Assembly (NCBI GenBank): GCA_951406725.2
Contig: CATOCA020000001.1
Coordinates: 4,464,001-4,528,000 of the forward strand
Reading direction: 5' to 3'
Source of the DNA: Octopus vulgaris
Taxonomy: Eukaryota
DNA length: 64,000 nt
Shown: positions 12,631 through 21,026 of the stretch, one piece after another
Numbering within the stretch: position 1 is the first letter of the stretch
Layout: the number at the start of each line of letters is the position of its first letter
Program-made: the position numbers and the translations under genes
The notes under the pieces: generated by a model
Told to the model about the DNA's origin: nothing
Seen by the model: only the letters and a program-made list of their open reading frames with translations
Database searches by the model: none

Positions 12631-12704
<74 letters not shown>

Positions 12705-12755
12705 TATATATATATATATATATTATTATATATATATATATAAATATATATATAT

Positions 12756-13318
12756 AACAATGATAAATATCAATGTGAGTTATATATAGTAGCGGTAACA
12801 CAACGTGACGTATTTTTGCCATTTCAATATGGCTAAACCCTAAGGGTGGATGCTACTGTAGTTTTTAGCCCCAGGAGGACACACTCCTCCAGCTGGCCAT
12901 AGACACACTTTCTGTGTCCTGTCAGTATTTGTAAAGGGAAGTCATCCTTCCCGTCTTCAACTTATGATACACACGGACTCGAGTTTCAAGGTATTGACCT
13001 CTCGTCAGCGTGTGACAATCATAGTTGTCGCCGAGAATTAGATTTCCTTCACAAATACTTATACTTTTTCCAGCGTCCACTGTCGCTGATATTGAAAAAG
13101 TGACATCAAACAATGATAAATATCAATGTGAGTTATATACAGTAGCGGTAACACAACGTGACGTATTTTTGCCATTTGACTTCCCTTTGCAAATACTGAC
13201 AGGACACAGAAAGTGTGTCTATGGCCAGCTGGAGGAGTGTGTCCTCCTGGGGCTAAAAACTACAGTAGCATCCACCCTTAGGGGTTAGCCATATTGAAAT
13301 GGCAAAAATACGTCACGT
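12756..13318 (-). mobile_element. Non-autonomous hammerhead-containing retroelement (retrozyme / Penelope-like pLTR) in (TA)n
   Basis: 353-bp monomer with a 69-bp direct repeat (12756-12824 = 13109-13177), a 142-bp inverted copy (12803-12944 vs 13177-13318), a 47-bp unpaired tail and (TA)n on both sides. Confidence 0.82.
12970..13014 (-). ncRNA. Minimal type I hammerhead ribozyme
   Basis: Minus strand: CACACG-CTGACGA-GAGGT caat ACCTT-GAAA-CTCGAG-TC-CGTGTG = stem I, CUGANGA core, stem II, GAAA, palindromic stem III, GUC site, stem I'. Confidence 0.9.
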
Positions 13319-13869
13319 ATATATATATATATATATGTATGTATATGTATATGTATTTGTGTGTGTGTGTGTGTGTGTGTTTCCATTTGCTGTTACTGAA
13401 AATTGCTCAGCAATGAACGATTTGATTATCATTTTCCCTGTTAATAGACAAACCATTGGAATAAGTGATCCCTTGAACAACAGGTAAGGGTTAATAACAT
13501 GAAGGGGATCCAGATGCAATTAGAATGGATCAATAATATACTCATACAACCCATGGTAGTATGGAGAAAAGCTGTAAAATGATTGCTTTATATGCATATA
13601 CGTACATATATAAGTCTATGTATGTGTATTCTCGTTTACATGTGTGAGTAGCTGTATGGCATAGTGATTCCGGTGTTACCCTCACAATAGCTAGATCGTG
13701 GGTTTGATTCTTGCAATACCCTTCCTTTCCCAAGACTTCCGAATGTTCGCCTGCTTTCCTAACCAGTGGAGTGGCATCATTGAAAACGTCAAACAATGTA
13801 AAGCACATTGTGACCAGTGATGTGTAACATCTGGCAGTATACTCGATCATGTGACTACATGATTATATA

Positions 13870-13937
<68 letters not shown>

Positions 13938-14016
13938 CGTGTGTGTGTGTGTCTTTTGTTTTCTGTAAATTTGTCTGTGTGTGTGTGTGTGTGTGCGTGT
14001 GGGTTGGGGTACTTAA

Positions 14017-14159
14017 GGTTGGAATTTGAAACTATTTCTTGTGAAGGGTATCGACTTGTAACCTTTAATTAAGATCTTAATACATAAGCATTACGAAAGA
14101 TGTTTTATGAATACATTTGTGTACACTACACACGGAGACAAAGGCCAGATGACTGCTAG
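14017..14159 (+). mobile_element. Helitron-like 3' end fragment
   Basis: Ends GGAGACAAAGGCCAGATGACTG-CTAG|T; duplicate of 15667-15809. Confidence 0.55.
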
Positions 14160-14411
14160 TATATATTATACATACACATATATACATACGCATAGCAGAC
14201 TTAATAACATAGGCTAAGAGAAGAATAAGATAGGGAGGAAATGGAGGAAGCGAGGTATTGAAATAAACACTGGGTTTACAATTTGAAGTTCGGAAGTGTG
14301 GAAGTTGTAAAGATAATTTATGGACAGGTCAGAAAGAAAGCTAAAACAGCAAATGGAGTGGGAGGGAGTTACAGTTACAGACAATAAATACATGAAACTT
14401 GACTTTATCAC

Positions 14412-14487
<76 letters not shown>

Positions 14488-14504
14488 TTATATTCAGTTT
14501 TAAA

Positions 14505-14834
14505 AGTCTTTCACATGTTTCAGGCATTTGACAGCGACCATTCTGTAGCACCACCTCGAAAGGTTCTAGTTGAACAAATCAACCCCCGGACATTTTTTCA
14601 GCCTAGTACTTATTCTATCGGCATCCTTAAGCGAACCGCAAAGTTATGGTGATGTAAACACACCAACACCGGTTGCCAATCGATGATGAAGAGTCCATAT
14701 AAACACACAAGTATATATATATGCGACGGGCTTCTTTCACTTCCCATCTACCAAATTCAATCTCAAGGCTTTAAGGGATTGAACGCAGAACCATGTGGTG
14801 AGGAAGCAAGCTTCTTACCACACAGCCATTCCTG
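14505..14834 (-). mobile_element. SINE family A, diverged
   Basis: Degenerate but collinear with family A. Confidence 0.7.
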
Positions 14835-15379
14835 TGACTATATACACAGATATATACATATATGAATTTTGTAGTGTCCAGGGAGTCATTATGCCAATAT
14901 CATTAACACACGCACTGGTTCGATTCCACTTCTTTATTGTTTGTCAATATTTAAATTCATTTGTTTTCAAAATATTTTCTTTTCTAAGATGAACATAATT
15001 TTTGCACAATTCATCGATGAACGAAATGTAAAGAAACATACAGGCACGAACACACATTTACCCACTCACACACACACACACACAAGCATATGCATAGGTG
15101 TATATAAATATGTATGCGTATGTATGAGTGTATACACATACATACACATACGTACATATAGATGTATAATGATAAATGAAAATTTATTGAATCGATTTTT
15201 ATGAAGTTTGGTAAACGAATGAAATAAAGTCACGTGATTGAATTTAGAAACAACAAAAATGAATTGCATGTTACGGGATTTATTGTGGAATTTTTTAAAG
15301 ACATTTTACTTCAGAACATTCAGTATAATGCGTAGAAGACAACATAACATTTTTCAATCATCTGGAGCTCAAAGCTCCC

Positions 15380-15809
15380 GAAGTTGAAGGTCTATGGAGA
15401 CACAAGAAGAAAGGCAGGACAGGCACGGAGACAAAGAAATGTCGTAGAGACACAACAGCAACAGGAAGTAAAACATCAGTTTCAAACAACTAGTCAAGCC
15501 TACTGGAGGGAACAAGAGACACCAGAGGGGAAACGACAGAGGTTCGAGTCTCAAGCCATTAGAAAATCCAGCTTAAGAGAATATACGTTAACAGAACAAC
15601 TTCAAAGTAACGCAGATAGAAATGCCTGCTCAAGAGAAGAGGAAACATCAAAGTAACGACAAGTCAGGTTGGAATTTAAAACTTTATCTTTTGGAGAGGA
15701 GCGACTTGTCACCTTTAACGAAGATCTTAATACATAAGCATTACGAAAGATGCTTTATGAATACATTTGTGTAGAGTACACACTGGGTCAAAGGTCGGGT
15801 GACTGCAAG
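15380..15809 (+). mobile_element. Helitron-derived relic with STPR-like (ETxEqR..RL) coding remnant
   Basis: Frameshifted METQEERQDR / REQETPEGKRQRFESQ..REEETSK*RQVRLE repeats followed by a hairpin-like GGGTCAAAGGTCGGGT and CAAG|T (CTAG|T in the mirror copy at 44433). Confidence 0.5.
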
Positions 15810-15924
15810 TATATATTACACACACATACACATAGTAGACTTAATAATATAGGCTAAGAGAAGAATAAGAGAGGGAGGAAATGGAGGAAGCAGAGGCCTT
15901 GAAATAAACACTGGGTCTACATTG

Positions 15925-16169
15925 AGGGAAAATAAGTTGAAAAACAGCACCAGAAGATCTGACCACTCTGATTTGTTTAAAATCAAAAGTGGTCAACCAG
16001 ATGTGAAGTCTTGTGAAGCCACATACATTAGATCAACTAGAAGACAGATTCACCACAGACTGAAAAAGCATTCCTTCAAGACCACACCACCCAGGGCTTT
16101 ATTCTAACAATGTCAATATTGCCAAGGGAAATATCGCACCAGGATTATAGAAAGAGGCGTAGATGATGG
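15925..16169 (+). mobile_element. Penelope-like element GIY-YIG endonuclease relic
   Basis: LFKIKSGQPDVKSCEATYIRSTRRQIHHRLKKH...ALF*QCQYC resembles the VYKIxC..C..xYIGxTxR.L..R..EH...A...H motif; stop codon; truncated by a SINE. Confidence 0.65.
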
Positions 16170-16510
16170 AAGCACTCCGTCGGTTACGACGACGAGGGTT
16201 CCGGTTGATCCGATCAACGGAACAGCCTGCTCGTGAAATTAACGTGTAAGTGACTGAGCACTCCACAGACACGTGTACCCTTAACGTAGTTCTCGGGGAT
16301 ATTCAGCGTGATACAGTGAGTGACAAGTTCGGCCCTTTGAAATACAAGTACAACAGAAATAGGAAGTAAGAGTGAGAGAAAGTTGTGGTGAAAGAGTACA
16401 GCAGGGATCACCACCATCCCTGCCAGAGCCTCGTGGAGCTTTAGGTGTTTTCGCTCAATAAACACTCACAACGCCCGGTCTGGGAATCGAAACCGCGATC
16501 CGACGACCGC
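16170..16510 (-). mobile_element. SINE family C
   Basis: Tail GACGGAGTGCT and B-box GGTTTCGATTCCC; mirror at 43732-44066. Confidence 0.85.
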
Positions 16511-16820
16511 TGATATCAACCACTGAATGACAAAGATCCACTTCTTTAGAAGCACAGCACGAAGTTTGAAGCTCTGAAGTGAGCCAGACGAATGGAATCA
16601 TTTACTGCATTCAGGAATATTAATCGCTACTTGTCAATTATACACATAAAATTAAAAATTAATGTAAAATATTTCCTTTTTTTAGCTGAAGGCAGAAATT
16701 TATTGTAGAGATTGCATTAAATTATATGAAGAAAAAAAGATTTTATATTTTTTATATTCCTGTAAAATTGACTTACAAATTAAAATATTTCCTTGAAATA
16801 TAAAATTCCATCAGGTATAA

Positions 16821-17214
16821 TCTTTATATATAAAAGTAAGGTTGTGTGTCTGCCTCCTACGATTTAGATTCCTAACTACTCCCACATTTTGCGGTGCAGT
16901 TTAACCAAAACCGGTTATCTTATAGTCGTGATTCATATCGAGCCCTTCTGGGTATTAGCGCGCGTCTACGGTGAGTCTACCATTTAAAAAAAATTTACCA
17001 TCATTTTTTCCATTTTAATGCATTTTTTCGCTATTATATAAGGGAAGTAACTCTCTAAAAATGTCTACGATGAGTCAACGATTTTTAAAAAAAATTATCA
17101 TCATTTTTTTCCCATTTTTAATGCATTTTTTGGCTATTTTTTGGCTATAACTCTCTAAAAATGCTTAATAGTTATTTCCCTTACAAACCCAAGCAACGCC
17201 GGCGATACTGCTAG
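16821..17214 (+). mobile_element. Non-autonomous Helitron
   Basis: A|TC 5' end (TCTTTATATATAAAAG), subterminal GC-rich hairpin-like CCCAAGCAACGCCGGCG, CTAG|T 3' end, inserted between A and T with no TSD. Confidence 0.8.
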
Positions 17215-17342
17215 TTAGGTATAATTTTCTTCCTTTAAATTTCCTCACATATATTTATTTCAACCTTTCTATTCTTATAAAAATGCAGGACACATTTTTA
17301 TAGTTTATATAATGGCTTGAGAAAAACATAAATGGGAATAGA

Positions 17343-17359
17343 AGAGCATTTGTATGTGC

Positions 17360-17409
<50 letters not shown>

Positions 17410-17417
17410 CATTTGTA

Positions 17418-17470
<53 letters not shown>

Positions 17471-17483
17471 CATTTGTATGTGC

Positions 17484-17535
<52 letters not shown>

Positions 17536-17570
17536 CATTTGTATGTGCATATATATATATATATATATAT
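17343..17570. repeat. Compound minisatellite: [GAGCATTTGTATGTGC-(AT)n-(AG)n] x~4
   Basis: Direct reading; mirrored at 43381-43655. Confidence 0.9.
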
Positions 17571-18175
17571 TGGTAAAAACGGTAAGATAACAAAAGAAAG
17601 AAAGAGACCTCAATATTATGTAAATAGAGGAAATTCTCTATAAAATAATATGTTACAATTACTCAATAGAATATTCTATGTAATATGCTTCCATATTAAA
17701 TTTTTCTGTGTGTAAGAGTCCTCAACCGATGTGAGGCGATAAACCAAAAATCCGTATTAGCTCTTAGTGAATATATATATAAATGCACAAATAATTTACA
17801 TTATTAAAACATGCTATAAATTAATAATTACTGACTAATTAGAGTAGAAATACGTACATGACTTTTAAAAAAATATTTGGATTTATGATTGATTAAATAC
17901 CCAAGGCTAAGCTCCAGCGTGGCCACAACCCAATGCTTTAAAAAATAAAACGCATGACCCACATATCATATGTATAACTTGAAATCTCTCCACCACCAAC
18001 ACCGTTTAGTCTCTTAATCTCTCCCTCTCCCTCTCTTTCTCTCTCTATAAACGACAAACCAACTTTTCAATTATTATTCACCTCTTTCTCCTTTACAAAT
18101 CTACACTTTTATATAATCATTTTATTTCCTCATCTATTCTACTGGTAATTCCAGAGAAATCAAACATAATTTCCT

Positions 18176-18395
18176 ATTCTACTCTCGGTACAAGACCCGA
18201 AATTTTGGAGGAGGAGGCCAGTCGATTAGGTCGTATTAGTACGTAACTGGTACTCAATTTATCGACAGCGAATGGATGAAAGGCAAAATTGACCTCGGCG
18301 GAATTTGACTTCAGAACATAAAGACAGACGAAATACCGCTTAGCATTTCGTAAATTTTTTTTTTCCCACAAGGGGACAACACAGAGGGGACAGTA
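18176..18395 (-). mobile_element. SINE family B (partial)
   Basis: Family B core; mirror 42338-42552. Confidence 0.8.
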
Positions 18396-18479
18396 CAATC
18401 TGATATGGGGTCAGATTTAACGTATGAATCGACACAAAGATGGATTTTAAAATTTTACATAAATATGAAGAGTTCGGAT

Positions 18480-18720
18480 GATAAAATATACAACATTACA
18501 GAATAGAGTGGGGAGGACGGGATGTGCTTGGACCCCACGAGCGCTGCCTCCCCACTGATGCTTTGGGTTCATCCTGCAATGTATTCATGCAGTTCCATCC
18601 GTACCCCGCTTTCGGGCGACATTCTTCCATCGATCTTGAAACATTTTCGCGGACAGGCATTTTCTCTCAAACCCTATTTTCCTTAGGTGGAAGGTGGAGA
18701 AATTAAACAACCCAGGGGCA
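18480..18720 (-). mobile_element. Probable 3' end of an L1/Tx1-like LINE
   Basis: Minus strand FHLRKIGFERKCLSAKMFQDRWKNVAR resembles the C-terminal ..F..RW.. motif of L1/Tx1 ORF2, followed by an A-rich tail; recognition from memory only. Confidence 0.35.
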
Positions 18721-18821
18721 GAGATAGAATGCCTATTATTAACCCTATTTTTAATTCACACAGCAGTTTAGAGACTCCGCCGTTCGTGCATAATAAACTT
18801 TATAATCATTCTAAACAATAA

Positions 18822-19045
18822 GGCGGCGAGTTGGCTGAAACGTTAGCACGCCGAGCGAAATGCGCAGCCGTATTTCGTCTGCCGTTACGTTCTGAGTTCA
18901 ATTCCGCCGACTTTGCCTTTCATCGTCGACTTTAAATAATACCAGTTACCACTTTCTATCGTTTCTGGGTCCTCGTGTTTATTAAATAAGTACCAGTAAC
19001 GCCGGATCGATTTGCCTTTTCTTTTCGGGGTCGATATAAGTACAG
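18822..19045 (+). mobile_element. SINE family B (3' part garbled)
   Basis: Intact head, scrambled tail; the mirror copy 41695-41902 is clean. Confidence 0.8.
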
Positions 19046-19339
19046 TTACGCTGGGTCATTAATCTTAATTTTCAAGTCCTTGTGCCAAAGAAGAAATAAT
19101 AATTCTAGACAACGTGAAATAATCCTCAGAAGACATCCATCTGATAGATAATATTTAAGATTGCGAGAAAACATATTTAATGCATTCCACATCAAAATGT
19201 TAACATAGGATAAAGAAGTGGGGAGAGAAATGTATGCAGTCACCCACTTTTTGAATGTTTAAACAATTCATACTGTTATATAAATAATATTTAAAATACG
19301 AGAACAATTACATTTAGATGTAAAATTAAAGAAATAGTC

Positions 19340-19737
19340 TTTTCTACTCAAGACACAAGGCCCCAGATTTGGTGGGAGGTGGCCAGTAGATAAGTGTAAT
19401 ACCAGTACGCGACCAGTACGAAAGGATGAAAGGCAAAGTCGACCTCGGCGGAATTTGAACTCAGAAAATAAAGACAGACGAAACATCGCTAAGTGTTTCG
19501 CCCGGCGTGCTAACGTTTCTGCCAAGCTAGCTGCCTTTTCTTTTCTACGATAGGCACAAGGCGAGGGAACCAGTTGATTGGATAGACACCAGTATGCAAC
19601 TGGTATTTAATTCATCGACCCCAAAAGGATAAAGGGTAAAGTCAACCTCGGTGGAATTTGAACTCAGAACGTAAAGACGGACGAAATGCGTTGCAGCATT
19701 TCGTCCGGCGTGCTAACGTTTCTGCCAGCTCACGCCT
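19340..19737 (-). mobile_element. Two tandem SINE family B copies
   Basis: Two heads (ending 19535 and 19737); mirror 41053-41450. Confidence 0.85.
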
Positions 19738-19851
19738 TAAATTAAATAAAAATTATTTTCTACTCTAGGCACAAGGGGAGGGAGCCTGATGCTCGAGAAA
19801 AATTTTAAACTCTTGTACATATATACATACATACATACATACATACATACA

Positions 19852-19921
<70 letters not shown>

Positions 19922-20409
19922 TAATCCAAACAAGAAAGCACAAAAAACACAACAACGAGAGGACGTGGAACAAATATAGTATTATTGGACGCTCAGGAAA
20001 GAAGGAAAGATCCAGAGAAGGGAAGACAGAGGGAAAAAAATCGTATATATATATATATATATATTCGTAAACTCTATTTCCAGCCCTTCTACATTTGTAT
20101 TTCTCAAGATAAGATTCAAGACAAGAAAATTTTTTTTACCTTATTTCAAATGGTTTCGATGCTGGAGAAGCTTGGGATTCGTGTTTCCTCACGAAGCGAA
20201 AGGATATAAATGTTTCTTAGTTAGTTAATAAGCAGGAGGTGACTACTCTTATTCAATTTCGTGCCACACCCTGACTAACACGAAATCTTTTATTTAAATT
20301 TGAATGCTTTTTACAATTTGTCATGTCAAAGTATAATTCAATTCATTTCGTATGACGTAACCTCTCCATAATTGTCTGAAAACCTATGTGCATATATATA
20401 TATATATGG

Positions 20410-20452
<43 letters not shown>

Positions 20453-20562
20453 GTGTGTGTGTGTGTGTGTGTGTGTACATATGTATGCAGATTATATAAA
20501 ACCCACTTAAATCTTGTCAAACCAGTTTTCTTGTTAAATGTTCATACACACACACAAAACTG

Positions 20563-21026
20563 ACCCCCACTACCCCGCCCTGTCCCTAGCTACATTCAGA
20601 TGGCTGATCCCCCTTATGTTATAGAGCAGTTACTGTTTATATCTCGCTCAGAGATTTATTATTGTTGTCGAACGGTTTTTCTACATCAGTGACTGTGGTT
20701 ACTGTGAAAATCCATATATATCCAGCCTGTAGAGGAAGTCCCTCAACGAAGAACGGTGCTTACCATGCGTTGATAAGAGGCAAATACCTCGAAACCGGTC
20801 CGTATGTAGTATCCGTATCTTCGGGGAGGCTGATCTCCCTTTGCAGGCTGGCAAGGACACCGAGATGGTGTCAGCCCTTCTGGTGACGTTGATGATCGCA
20901 TGGGGCTAAATGCATCAGTAACACCCCCACTACCCCGCCCTGTCCCTAGCCACATTCAGATGGCTGATCCCCCTTATGTTATAGAGCAGTTACTGTTTAT
21001 ATCTCGCTCAGAGATTTATTATTGTT
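20563..21026 (+). mobile_element. Non-autonomous hammerhead-containing retroelement (360-bp monomer + 104-bp terminal redundancy)
   Basis: 20563-20666 repeated at 20923-21026 (period 360); ends TTTATTATTGTT-(AT)n; collinear homology with the minus strand of 12756-13177. Confidence 0.82.
20764..20806 (+). ncRNA. Minimal type I hammerhead ribozyme, U3-A8 variant
   Basis: CATGCG-TTGATAA-GAGG caaata CCTC-GAAA-CCGG-TC-CGTATG. Confidence 0.82.

Follow-up and report, generated by a model that had tools for sequence, protein, structure and literature searches.

Young subfamilies of a protein-free hammerhead repeat in Octopus vulgaris

Two hammerhead-bearing insertions in the window

We analysed a 64,000-nucleotide (nt) stretch of the Octopus vulgaris genome (contig CATOCA020000001.1, positions 4,464,001 to 4,528,000; hereafter the window), in which two insertions of a short repeat carry a type I hammerhead ribozyme motif. 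Insertion A (12756-13177, minus strand) and insertion B (20563-21026, plus strand) are partial tandems with periods of 353 and 360 base pairs (bp). They represent young subfamilies of a long-lived, protein-free superfamily of hammerhead repeats, of the animal retrozyme type that lacks long terminal repeats (non-LTR retrozymes). An earlier note on this DNA had described both; its coordinates, strands and periods, and all the sequence anchors and stems that it listed, are present in the sequence. The extent given for A was, however, incomplete: an inverted arm on the plus strand (13177-13318) had been overlooked, and the insertion really spans 12756-13318.

The long arm of insertion A (locus L001; 12756-13177, minus strand) comprises monomer positions 285-353 followed by a full 353-nt monomer (12756-13108, minus strand), and terminates at what we call the long, or tail, end. 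The inverted arm covers monomer positions 165-306, terminates at the short end and thus stops 47 nt short of the end of the other arm. The stretch that separates the two ends, from monomer position ~306 to 353, is the tail (12756-12802, minus strand). (AT)n tracts adjoin the long end (12633-12755) and the short end (13319-13356). Within the monomer, a hammerhead motif with the core CUGACGA and a self-complementary loop 3 (12970-13014, minus strand; predicted cut after GUC at 12976) sits at the tip of a rod-like hairpin of ~130 nt (12922-13060, minus strand; z -6.3). Insertion B (locus L031) is a single 5'-truncated arm, with positions 257-360 followed by a full 360-nt monomer (20667-21026), the long end and then (AT)n. 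It has the same layout, with a rod-like hairpin (20721-20850, plus strand; z -6.5), a hammerhead motif with self-complementary loop 3 (20764-20806, plus strand; predicted cut after GUC at 20800) and a tail (20982-21026, plus strand). The core of B reads UUGAUAA (U3-A8), not CUGANGA.

A global alignment of the A and B monomers holds 234 identities in 390 columns and scores 570, whereas 500 dinucleotide shuffles give 193 ± 24 (z 15.6). Without the two hammerheads, the score is 458 against 166 ± 21 for dinucleotide shuffles (z 13.8). Homology between A and B therefore reaches beyond the hammerhead; an alignment confined to this motif had been named in the earlier note as a ground for giving up its proposal. 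No open frame of at least 120 amino acids (aa) was found inside A or B, and a single microsatellite frame extends into the final 34 bases of A.

A hammerhead motif scan of the 64-kb window returned A, B and a duplicate of B only. This second copy of B (39762-40229, minus strand) is the product of a 22.8-kb inverted duplication (19068-41722) and not an independent insertion. The arms of this large hairpin are 98% identical, with differences that include homopolymer lengths, and further inverted blocks around it reach ~13300 and ~46700; it could be a genuine palindrome or an artefact of fold-back assembly. Contig C31 carries the B locus in at least seven near-identical copies.

Family divergence and conserved RNA structure

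First-look genomic searches gave 2,235 candidates for A and 1,944 for B, the best full-length ones being 94-100% identical. A hammerhead-spanning pattern has 3,694 exact matches in the genome (control, 0). Full-length monomers were collected from 180 loci, 60 of them the best-scoring and 120 picked by their position within the first 68 Mb of contig C1. They form 9 clusters, up to 46% apart and 0.9-3.7% divergent within, with periods of 351-363 and head-to-tail arrays of up to 9 units. Older copies go down to 70-80% identity, and a search with the oldest one uncovered an old family at ~80% identity with the identical two ends (908 candidates, whose loci were scanned for hammerhead motifs only). 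The lineage is thus old, with young branches.

An 18-nt anchor gave 14,938 exact matches (control, 1), and about 45 of the first 100 are one variant. Eight of ten loci read for this variant proved to be a Helitron-like element carrying a 60-nt retrozyme fragment. Many genomic Helitron-like copies (L171, L177, L181, L188, L190-L193) carry this fragment, which ends at the short end. It is likely an old insertion that was later multiplied by its Helitron-like carrier, perhaps thousands of times. The window itself contains a non-autonomous element of this kind at ~16819-17215, presumably Helitron-like from its end features (5' TC, 3' hairpin and CTAG), and this copy is without the 60-nt fragment. 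At locus L242 (G000:C1:11167300-11170300), a 119-bp tandem array holds seven units, each made of a retrozyme 3' fragment, a tail and a short AT tract, apparently the birth of a minisatellite.

The structure of the repeat is conserved in a way that points to selection on RNA. In 20 real representatives, 41 pairs were paired in 94.5% of cases, 16 of them with double changes, and none of 500 shuffles matched this. Because the shuffle control ignores kinship, changes were recounted on a tree. Double changes that fall on a single branch and keep the pair numbered 8 in the hammerhead, where 0.9 ± 0.9 are expected, and 6 outside it, where 0.6 ± 0.8 are expected. The significant covariation on which the earlier note had let its proposal depend is thus upheld when changes are counted on the tree. 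Stem II of A, given there as GAGGT/ACCTT, does occur in the window copy but is peculiar to it, most sampled A copies having ACCTC.

Circular folding showed that the hammerhead caps a rod of ~130 nt in all five families, a feature missed in the first reading of the sequence. The rod alone has z values of -5.9 to -6.5 in these families. Its strands differ strongly between groups and still pair with their own partners. For the outer rod, present in 17 of the 20 representatives, the duplex with the own partner is at -18.0 kcal/mol, as compared to -9.3 and -6.8 kcal/mol across groups, and the own partner ranked first in 12 of the 17; for the inner rod, the values are -22.8 and -13.7 kcal/mol. Duplex energies were used here since the MAFFT alignment is out of register at the outer rod and at the GGGA/UCCC region, whose helices were left out of the pair and tree counts; RNAalifold on this alignment did not recover the rod. 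A local GGGA/UCCC hairpin was dropped as a candidate element because it competes with the rod. The nearly invariant TAGCC (alignment columns 250-256 and 294-312) has two possible partners, GGCTA upstream and TGGCT downstream, immediately ahead of the short end. This alternative pairing could possibly act as a switch at the reverse transcriptase (RT) start, a point on which covariation is uninformative given the invariance of the motif.

In 92 of the first 100 pattern matches (hand count), loop 3 of the hammerhead is perfectly palindromic; the palindrome occurs in seven different sequences, and the self-duplex of the loop is predicted at -8 to -11 kcal/mol. Palindromic loops 3 are a known sign of dimeric hammerheads (PMC4209133). 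By hand count in the same 100 matches, 30 cores are canonical, 11 are U3-A8, 14 are U3.G8, 42 carry U4C and 3 are of other types. U3-A8 is a known variant of Penelope-like element (PLE) hammerheads (PMC4209133), whereas U4C lowers hammerhead activity and U10.1-U11.1 is tolerated (PMC3088659).

Could these repeats be a DNA-level minisatellite, or a palindrome-prone repeat, spread by recombination with structure as a side effect? Tandem arrays are expected in that case, part of the rod would also be an inverted repeat of the DNA, and the C31 copies are indeed segmental duplicates. Yet short insertions are scattered over many contigs, and their 3' ends are fixed whereas the 5' ends vary. In addition, G.U-tolerant changes and covariation at the tertiary C3-G8 position, paired in 20 of 20 representatives, are RNA features, and the sense strand folds better than the antisense in all five families. 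We consider this explanation highly improbable.

Insertion footprint and candidate helper enzymes

The way in which the repeats are inserted proved informative. Among 138 merged regions, 72 are two-armed insertions, 63 of which have one arm ending at the short site and the other at the long site (4 of these 63 are segmental duplicates). None has two long ends; one has two short ends, at a three-part locus, and eight have an unclassifiable arm. The family thus has two fixed 3' ends ~45 nt apart, separated by a tail of 45-47 nt. The 3' end named in the earlier note is real, but it is one of the two, the other lying ~45 nt upstream. Of 171 arms, 142 adjoin (AT)3 or longer. Very short insertions, with little beyond the tail end, were seen at L078 (2650-2691) and L090 (2407-2433), one of them with an inverted copy.

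This is the footprint of PLEs. Partial tandems, an inverted 5'-truncated arm, a tail often present at one end only and microsatellite targets are described for these elements (PMC8557442). Mapping has traced the tail to two internal sites at which RT starts, and the anole PLE protein, a predicted dimer, nicks and extends both strands (PMC11167929). In the octopus genome, one young family of Neptune, a type of PLE, obeys the same long-plus-short rule in 5 of 5 two-armed copies. The description of the repeat as a non-coding, structure-selected mobile family targeting (TA)n is supported by the covariation, the arms adjoining (AT)n and the arrays without any open reading frame (ORF). Taking circular and linear templates together, we are confident that the family is real, abundant, selected for its structure and, by its footprint, mobilised by PLEs.

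Candidate enzymes were sought through the GIY-YIG endonuclease domain. The search gave 6,136 candidates, of which 150 were scored and 30 of these read at first. Two young families have a CxxxxCxxC linker before a C-terminal GIY-YIG domain. Their intact ORFs measure 781 aa in one, at 8 of 20 loci, and 775 aa in the other, at 6 of 20; by the description in PMC8557442, both are Neptune-type PLEs. In both, the RT domain scores just under and GIY-YIG over the Pfam cut-off, the second family as a 574-aa piece, and both have hammerheads and (AT)n ends. Copies of these two families (L151-L158; L352, L358, L359, L362, L368, L369) show the hammerhead cores UUGAUAA and CCGAAGA, with palindromic loops. 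The 775-aa family has a U4C core with U.U in 30 of 30 copies, as does retrozyme family D. It lies across one (AT)n tract from insertions of D or D2 in 3 of 24 regions and in 0 of 114 others (post hoc Fisher p 0.005), and no young retrozyme was found beside the 30 3' ends of this family that were inspected. We regard its adjacency to D as a weak lead.

Mobilisation by a PLE, which the earlier note thought plausible, is supported by the footprint; the part it assigned to a local GIY-YIG relic is not supported. This degenerate GIY-YIG-like relic (15904-16104, plus strand) is unlinked to A or B and was rejected as a helper. It is a degenerate endonuclease fragment of another family; it has no Pfam hit, and a homologue reaches GIY-YIG only at E 0.008, below the cut-off. 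It has 39 matches, mostly on its own contig; 60 relic-related loci yielded one weak RT fragment, and the only likeness to A near the relic is a 29-nt AT-rich match. Neither Neptune protein has a match in the window. Elsewhere in the window, positions 1-689 hold eight tandem 84-bp units, which resemble C2H2 zinc-finger coding repeats in their motif.

Another question is whether the monomers are mere stumps, that is, pseudo-long terminal repeats (pLTRs), of a full-length PLE outside our sample. Truncated PLE copies leave the same footprint, matches to pLTRs are known for Xenopus retrozymes (bioRxiv 10.64898/2026.07.22.740005), and 150 of the 6,136 GIY-YIG candidates were scored. However, the long end joins position 1 of the next monomer directly, and arrays reach 9 monomers without any ORF. 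A further ground on which the earlier note would have given up its proposal, that the monomers are simply the pLTR of a known full-length PLE and do not amplify independently, is thus not borne out. An ORF for RT plus GIY-YIG between pLTRs was not found in the arrays and 5' flanks of the A/B family. The 5' flanks of 77 single-armed pieces share no ORF-like sequence, and shared flanks come down to segmental duplicates, the Helitron-like carrier and three further pairs. Moreover, the self-contained rod and hairpins are conserved across subfamilies up to 46% apart. This explanation is largely refuted, and we give it very little credence.

Template, mechanism and relation to known systems

Variation within and between insertions bears on the template. 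We compared insertions at least 93% like a reference, with duplicates dropped (30 for A, 24 for B and 16 for D). For A, divergence is 0.64% within an arm, 1.02% between arms and 1.54% between insertions; the corresponding values are 1.43, 1.19 and 3.68% for B and 0.31, 0.17 and 2.47% for D. In 137 of 152 cases a minor family allele is carried by every monomer, and in 91 of 98 by both arms; the 15 mixed cases are largely CpG, end or alignment effects. Among private variants (at least three monomers overlapping), 18 occur in all monomers, 8 in some and 97 in one, "private" being relative, as the sample represents a few per cent of the family. At locus L255, 12 monomers over both arms show no internal substitutions, and three private variants are found in all 12. 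In 17 insertions, both arms are longer than one monomer.

Reverse-transcription stops near the cut site number 5 of 96, with 5.4 expected, and 180 of 189 passages through it are intact. At the short-end site, there are 16 stops of 96 with 10 expected (P 0.04), an excess that is not significant in the position-sampled subset (7 of 45, P 0.17). Since both arms share one haplotype and stops are not in excess at GUC, the template is continuous through GUC and of one haplotype, hence either circular or an uncleaved multimer of uniform sequence. We lean towards a circular template, as arrays cannot grow longer by linear copying and inherited mosaics are rare. At locus L270 (1-4801), five successive monomers read G, A, G, A, G at one site, and at L287 (1-5501) a two-base variant marks monomers one and three of an arm. 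Such a period of two, seen in these two cases only, is what copying of a dimeric circle would produce.

Sequencing runs provide a further view; none of those that contain the repeat is annotated as RNA. In X6 and X8, from one study and two of the four runs guessed to be RNA, A assembles into a single 383-nt contig that is one base from L016. Its ends overlap by 30 nt, the monomer closing on itself; in a large comparison run, A is broken into pieces of ~100 nt. The contig shows a homogeneous cyclic sequence and not a covalent circle, as a tandem transcript would look alike. Reads joined at the GUC site, which the earlier note had suggested looking for, cannot tell a circle from an array because genomic tandem arrays hold the identical junction.

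The mechanism that we favour and hold to be probable is that a Neptune-type Penelope enzyme acts in trans and copies A and B RNA, likely as a circular monomer, into (AT)n tracts. The starting material is the arrays of head-to-tail monomers without ORF, whose monomer sequence appears to be present in runs guessed to be RNA. Neighbouring hammerheads are predicted to pair via their self-complementary loops 3 and to cut at GUC; by analogy with mussel and axolotl, the monomer would then be ligated to a circle. As the anole PLE work suggests, the PLE endonuclease would nick both strands of an (AT)n tract and RT would start at two fixed internal sites 45 nt apart. The observed pattern could arise if one strand is primed per site and both complementary DNAs (cDNAs) copy one haplotype. 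These cDNAs may run several monomers through the cleavage site, stop variably and be joined head to head, with the tail left on one arm only.

A bolder version, which we put forward tentatively and with less than even confidence, is a twin-primed, rolling-circle reverse transcription. A two-subunit Penelope enzyme would cut both (AT)n strands, and its two active sites would each begin at a fixed point of a single circular ribozyme RNA, one point per strand, and roll independently. The helper would recognise a conserved RNA fold and not shared sequence, which would let the lineage persist while diverging by 46%. The parasite and one young Neptune family would both have moved to a weakened core (U4C with U.U), with the dimer-forming loop kept.

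Several observations weigh against a self-cleaved circle copied by a Neptune enzyme. On the ribozyme side, only 41 of the first 100 cores are canonical or compensated, 56 carry the weakening U4C or U3.G8, and 10 of 20 representatives have a broken 10.1-11.1 pair; judging from these core sequences, cleavage may therefore be weak in the successful subfamilies. An Rfam search at A and B, with E up to 10, reported no hammerhead, and none was among the 150 of 168 matches listed for the whole window, mostly microsatellite matches to microRNA models; the ribozyme call therefore rests on the motif and its covariation. Insertion of the anole PLE in vitro did not need cleavage (PMC11167929), and 8 of 9 Xenopus dimers failed to cleave (10.64898/2026.07.22.740005). 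On the template side, a homogeneous linear multimer predicts the identical haplotype pattern and a self-closing contig, eight private variants are common to only some monomers of an array, and the nature of X6 and X8 as RNA is a guess. On the helper side, A and B have no sequence likeness to either young Neptune family (tail versus tail, p 0.12-0.67), the tails of these families are shorter (26 and ~30-36 nt, as compared to 45-47), and no pLTR or 3'-end match to an autonomous family was found among the families sampled, that is, within the 150 of 6,136 GIY-YIG candidates scored.

Several of these points would suit the same element and the same PLE helper with an uncleaved linear multimer transcript as template, the hammerhead being a vestige or a pairing device and circles by-products. 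No reads were seen to end at the cut site of the anole PLE (PMC11167929), family D, whose core is U4C, has the longest arrays in the sample (9 monomers), and the lack of stops at the cut site fits equally well. However, a linear template cannot account for the lengthening of arrays, yet long homogeneous arrays are young. Monomer-specific mutations are common, as the singletons show, and are seldom shared by part of an array; the few mixed family alleles have largely trivial origins. Finally, canonical or compensated cores persist in A, B and E, and circles have been shown for mussel and axolotl retrozymes (PMC7229834). A linear template is thus unlikely in our view, though far from negligible, and copying of a circle by a Neptune-type enzyme remains the favoured mechanism.

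The novelty suggested in the earlier note is not supported. The class of animal non-LTR retrozymes and non-autonomous PLEs is known, including in a mollusc, and so is the footprint for PLEs. Already in print are the size of the unit in a mollusc (350-390 bp), both the U3-A8 and the U.U variant, and a link to PLEs (PMC7229834, PMC4209133, bioRxiv 10.64898/2026.07.22.740005). We found no published description of a cephalopod retrozyme, although supplements, subscription papers, Dfam and Repbase may hold one. In its available part, a survey of cephalopod repeats mentions Penelope and not hammerheads (PMC8967140), and no cephalopod is named in the searchable supplements of PMC4209133. As a discovery, the family is modest; its value is chiefly that of a test system. 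The literature leaves open how animal retrozymes are mobilised, whether their circles serve as template and what gives rise to the tails and inversions of PLEs. The octopus family offers thousands of young, short insertions that show two start sites, two arms and the haplotype of their template. Together with two intact candidate enzymes and natural ribozyme variants, this makes these questions testable in vitro.

The family shares with endonuclease-bearing (EN+) PLEs such as Neptune, Poseidon and Naiad the partial tandems, the inverted 5'-truncated arm, the one-end tail and the microsatellite targets (PMC8557442, PMC11167929), and with PLEs in general a hammerhead with palindromic loop 3 and the U3-A8 variant (PMC4209133). 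In contrast to EN+ PLEs, it has no ORF, its tail is 45-47 nt long instead of 30-40, and it lacks 3'-end similarity to any sampled autonomous family; Naiads, for their part, are without canonical hammerheads. Multicopy head-to-tail forms are also known from non-autonomous Chlamys elements such as MRC1 (PMC8557442, PMC11167929, PMC4209133).

Retrozymes have been described as non-autonomous PLEs in 35 genomes, with no mollusc among them in the part of that work available to us (Li, Clavereau, Pollet 2026, 10.64898/2026.07.22.740005). The octopus family is similar in its co-occurrence with PLEs, in its monomer, dimer and multimer copies and in the proposed trans mobilisation. It differs in the pLTR homology, seen there for 24 of 57 Xenopus families, which match a known element, and not found here among the families sampled. 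That work suggests local amplification by unequal crossover, whereas here both arms of an insertion share a haplotype.

Also among the closest known systems are animal non-LTR retrozymes, for which work on a coral, a mussel and the axolotl has shown the cleavage and circles that are predicted here (Cervera and de la Pena 2020, PMC7229834); no cephalopod appears in the main text of that paper as available. Two-armed insertions, two fixed ends and a long rod under the hammerhead distinguish the octopus family and were not encountered in the same text. Head-to-tail repeats within the ~170-400 bp retrozyme range, dispersed at high copy in a genome that also has autonomous PLEs, place it among retrozymes. 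As in the animal families of PMC7229834, its units are tandem and non-coding, with a type I hammerhead, a palindromic loop 3 and thousands of copies, and their 353 and 360 bp are comparable to the 350-390 bp of mussel and the 330 and 350 bp of axolotl. In one axolotl family, stem II likewise has a mismatched U.U at its base, and PLEs are the proposed helpers there as well (PMC7229834).

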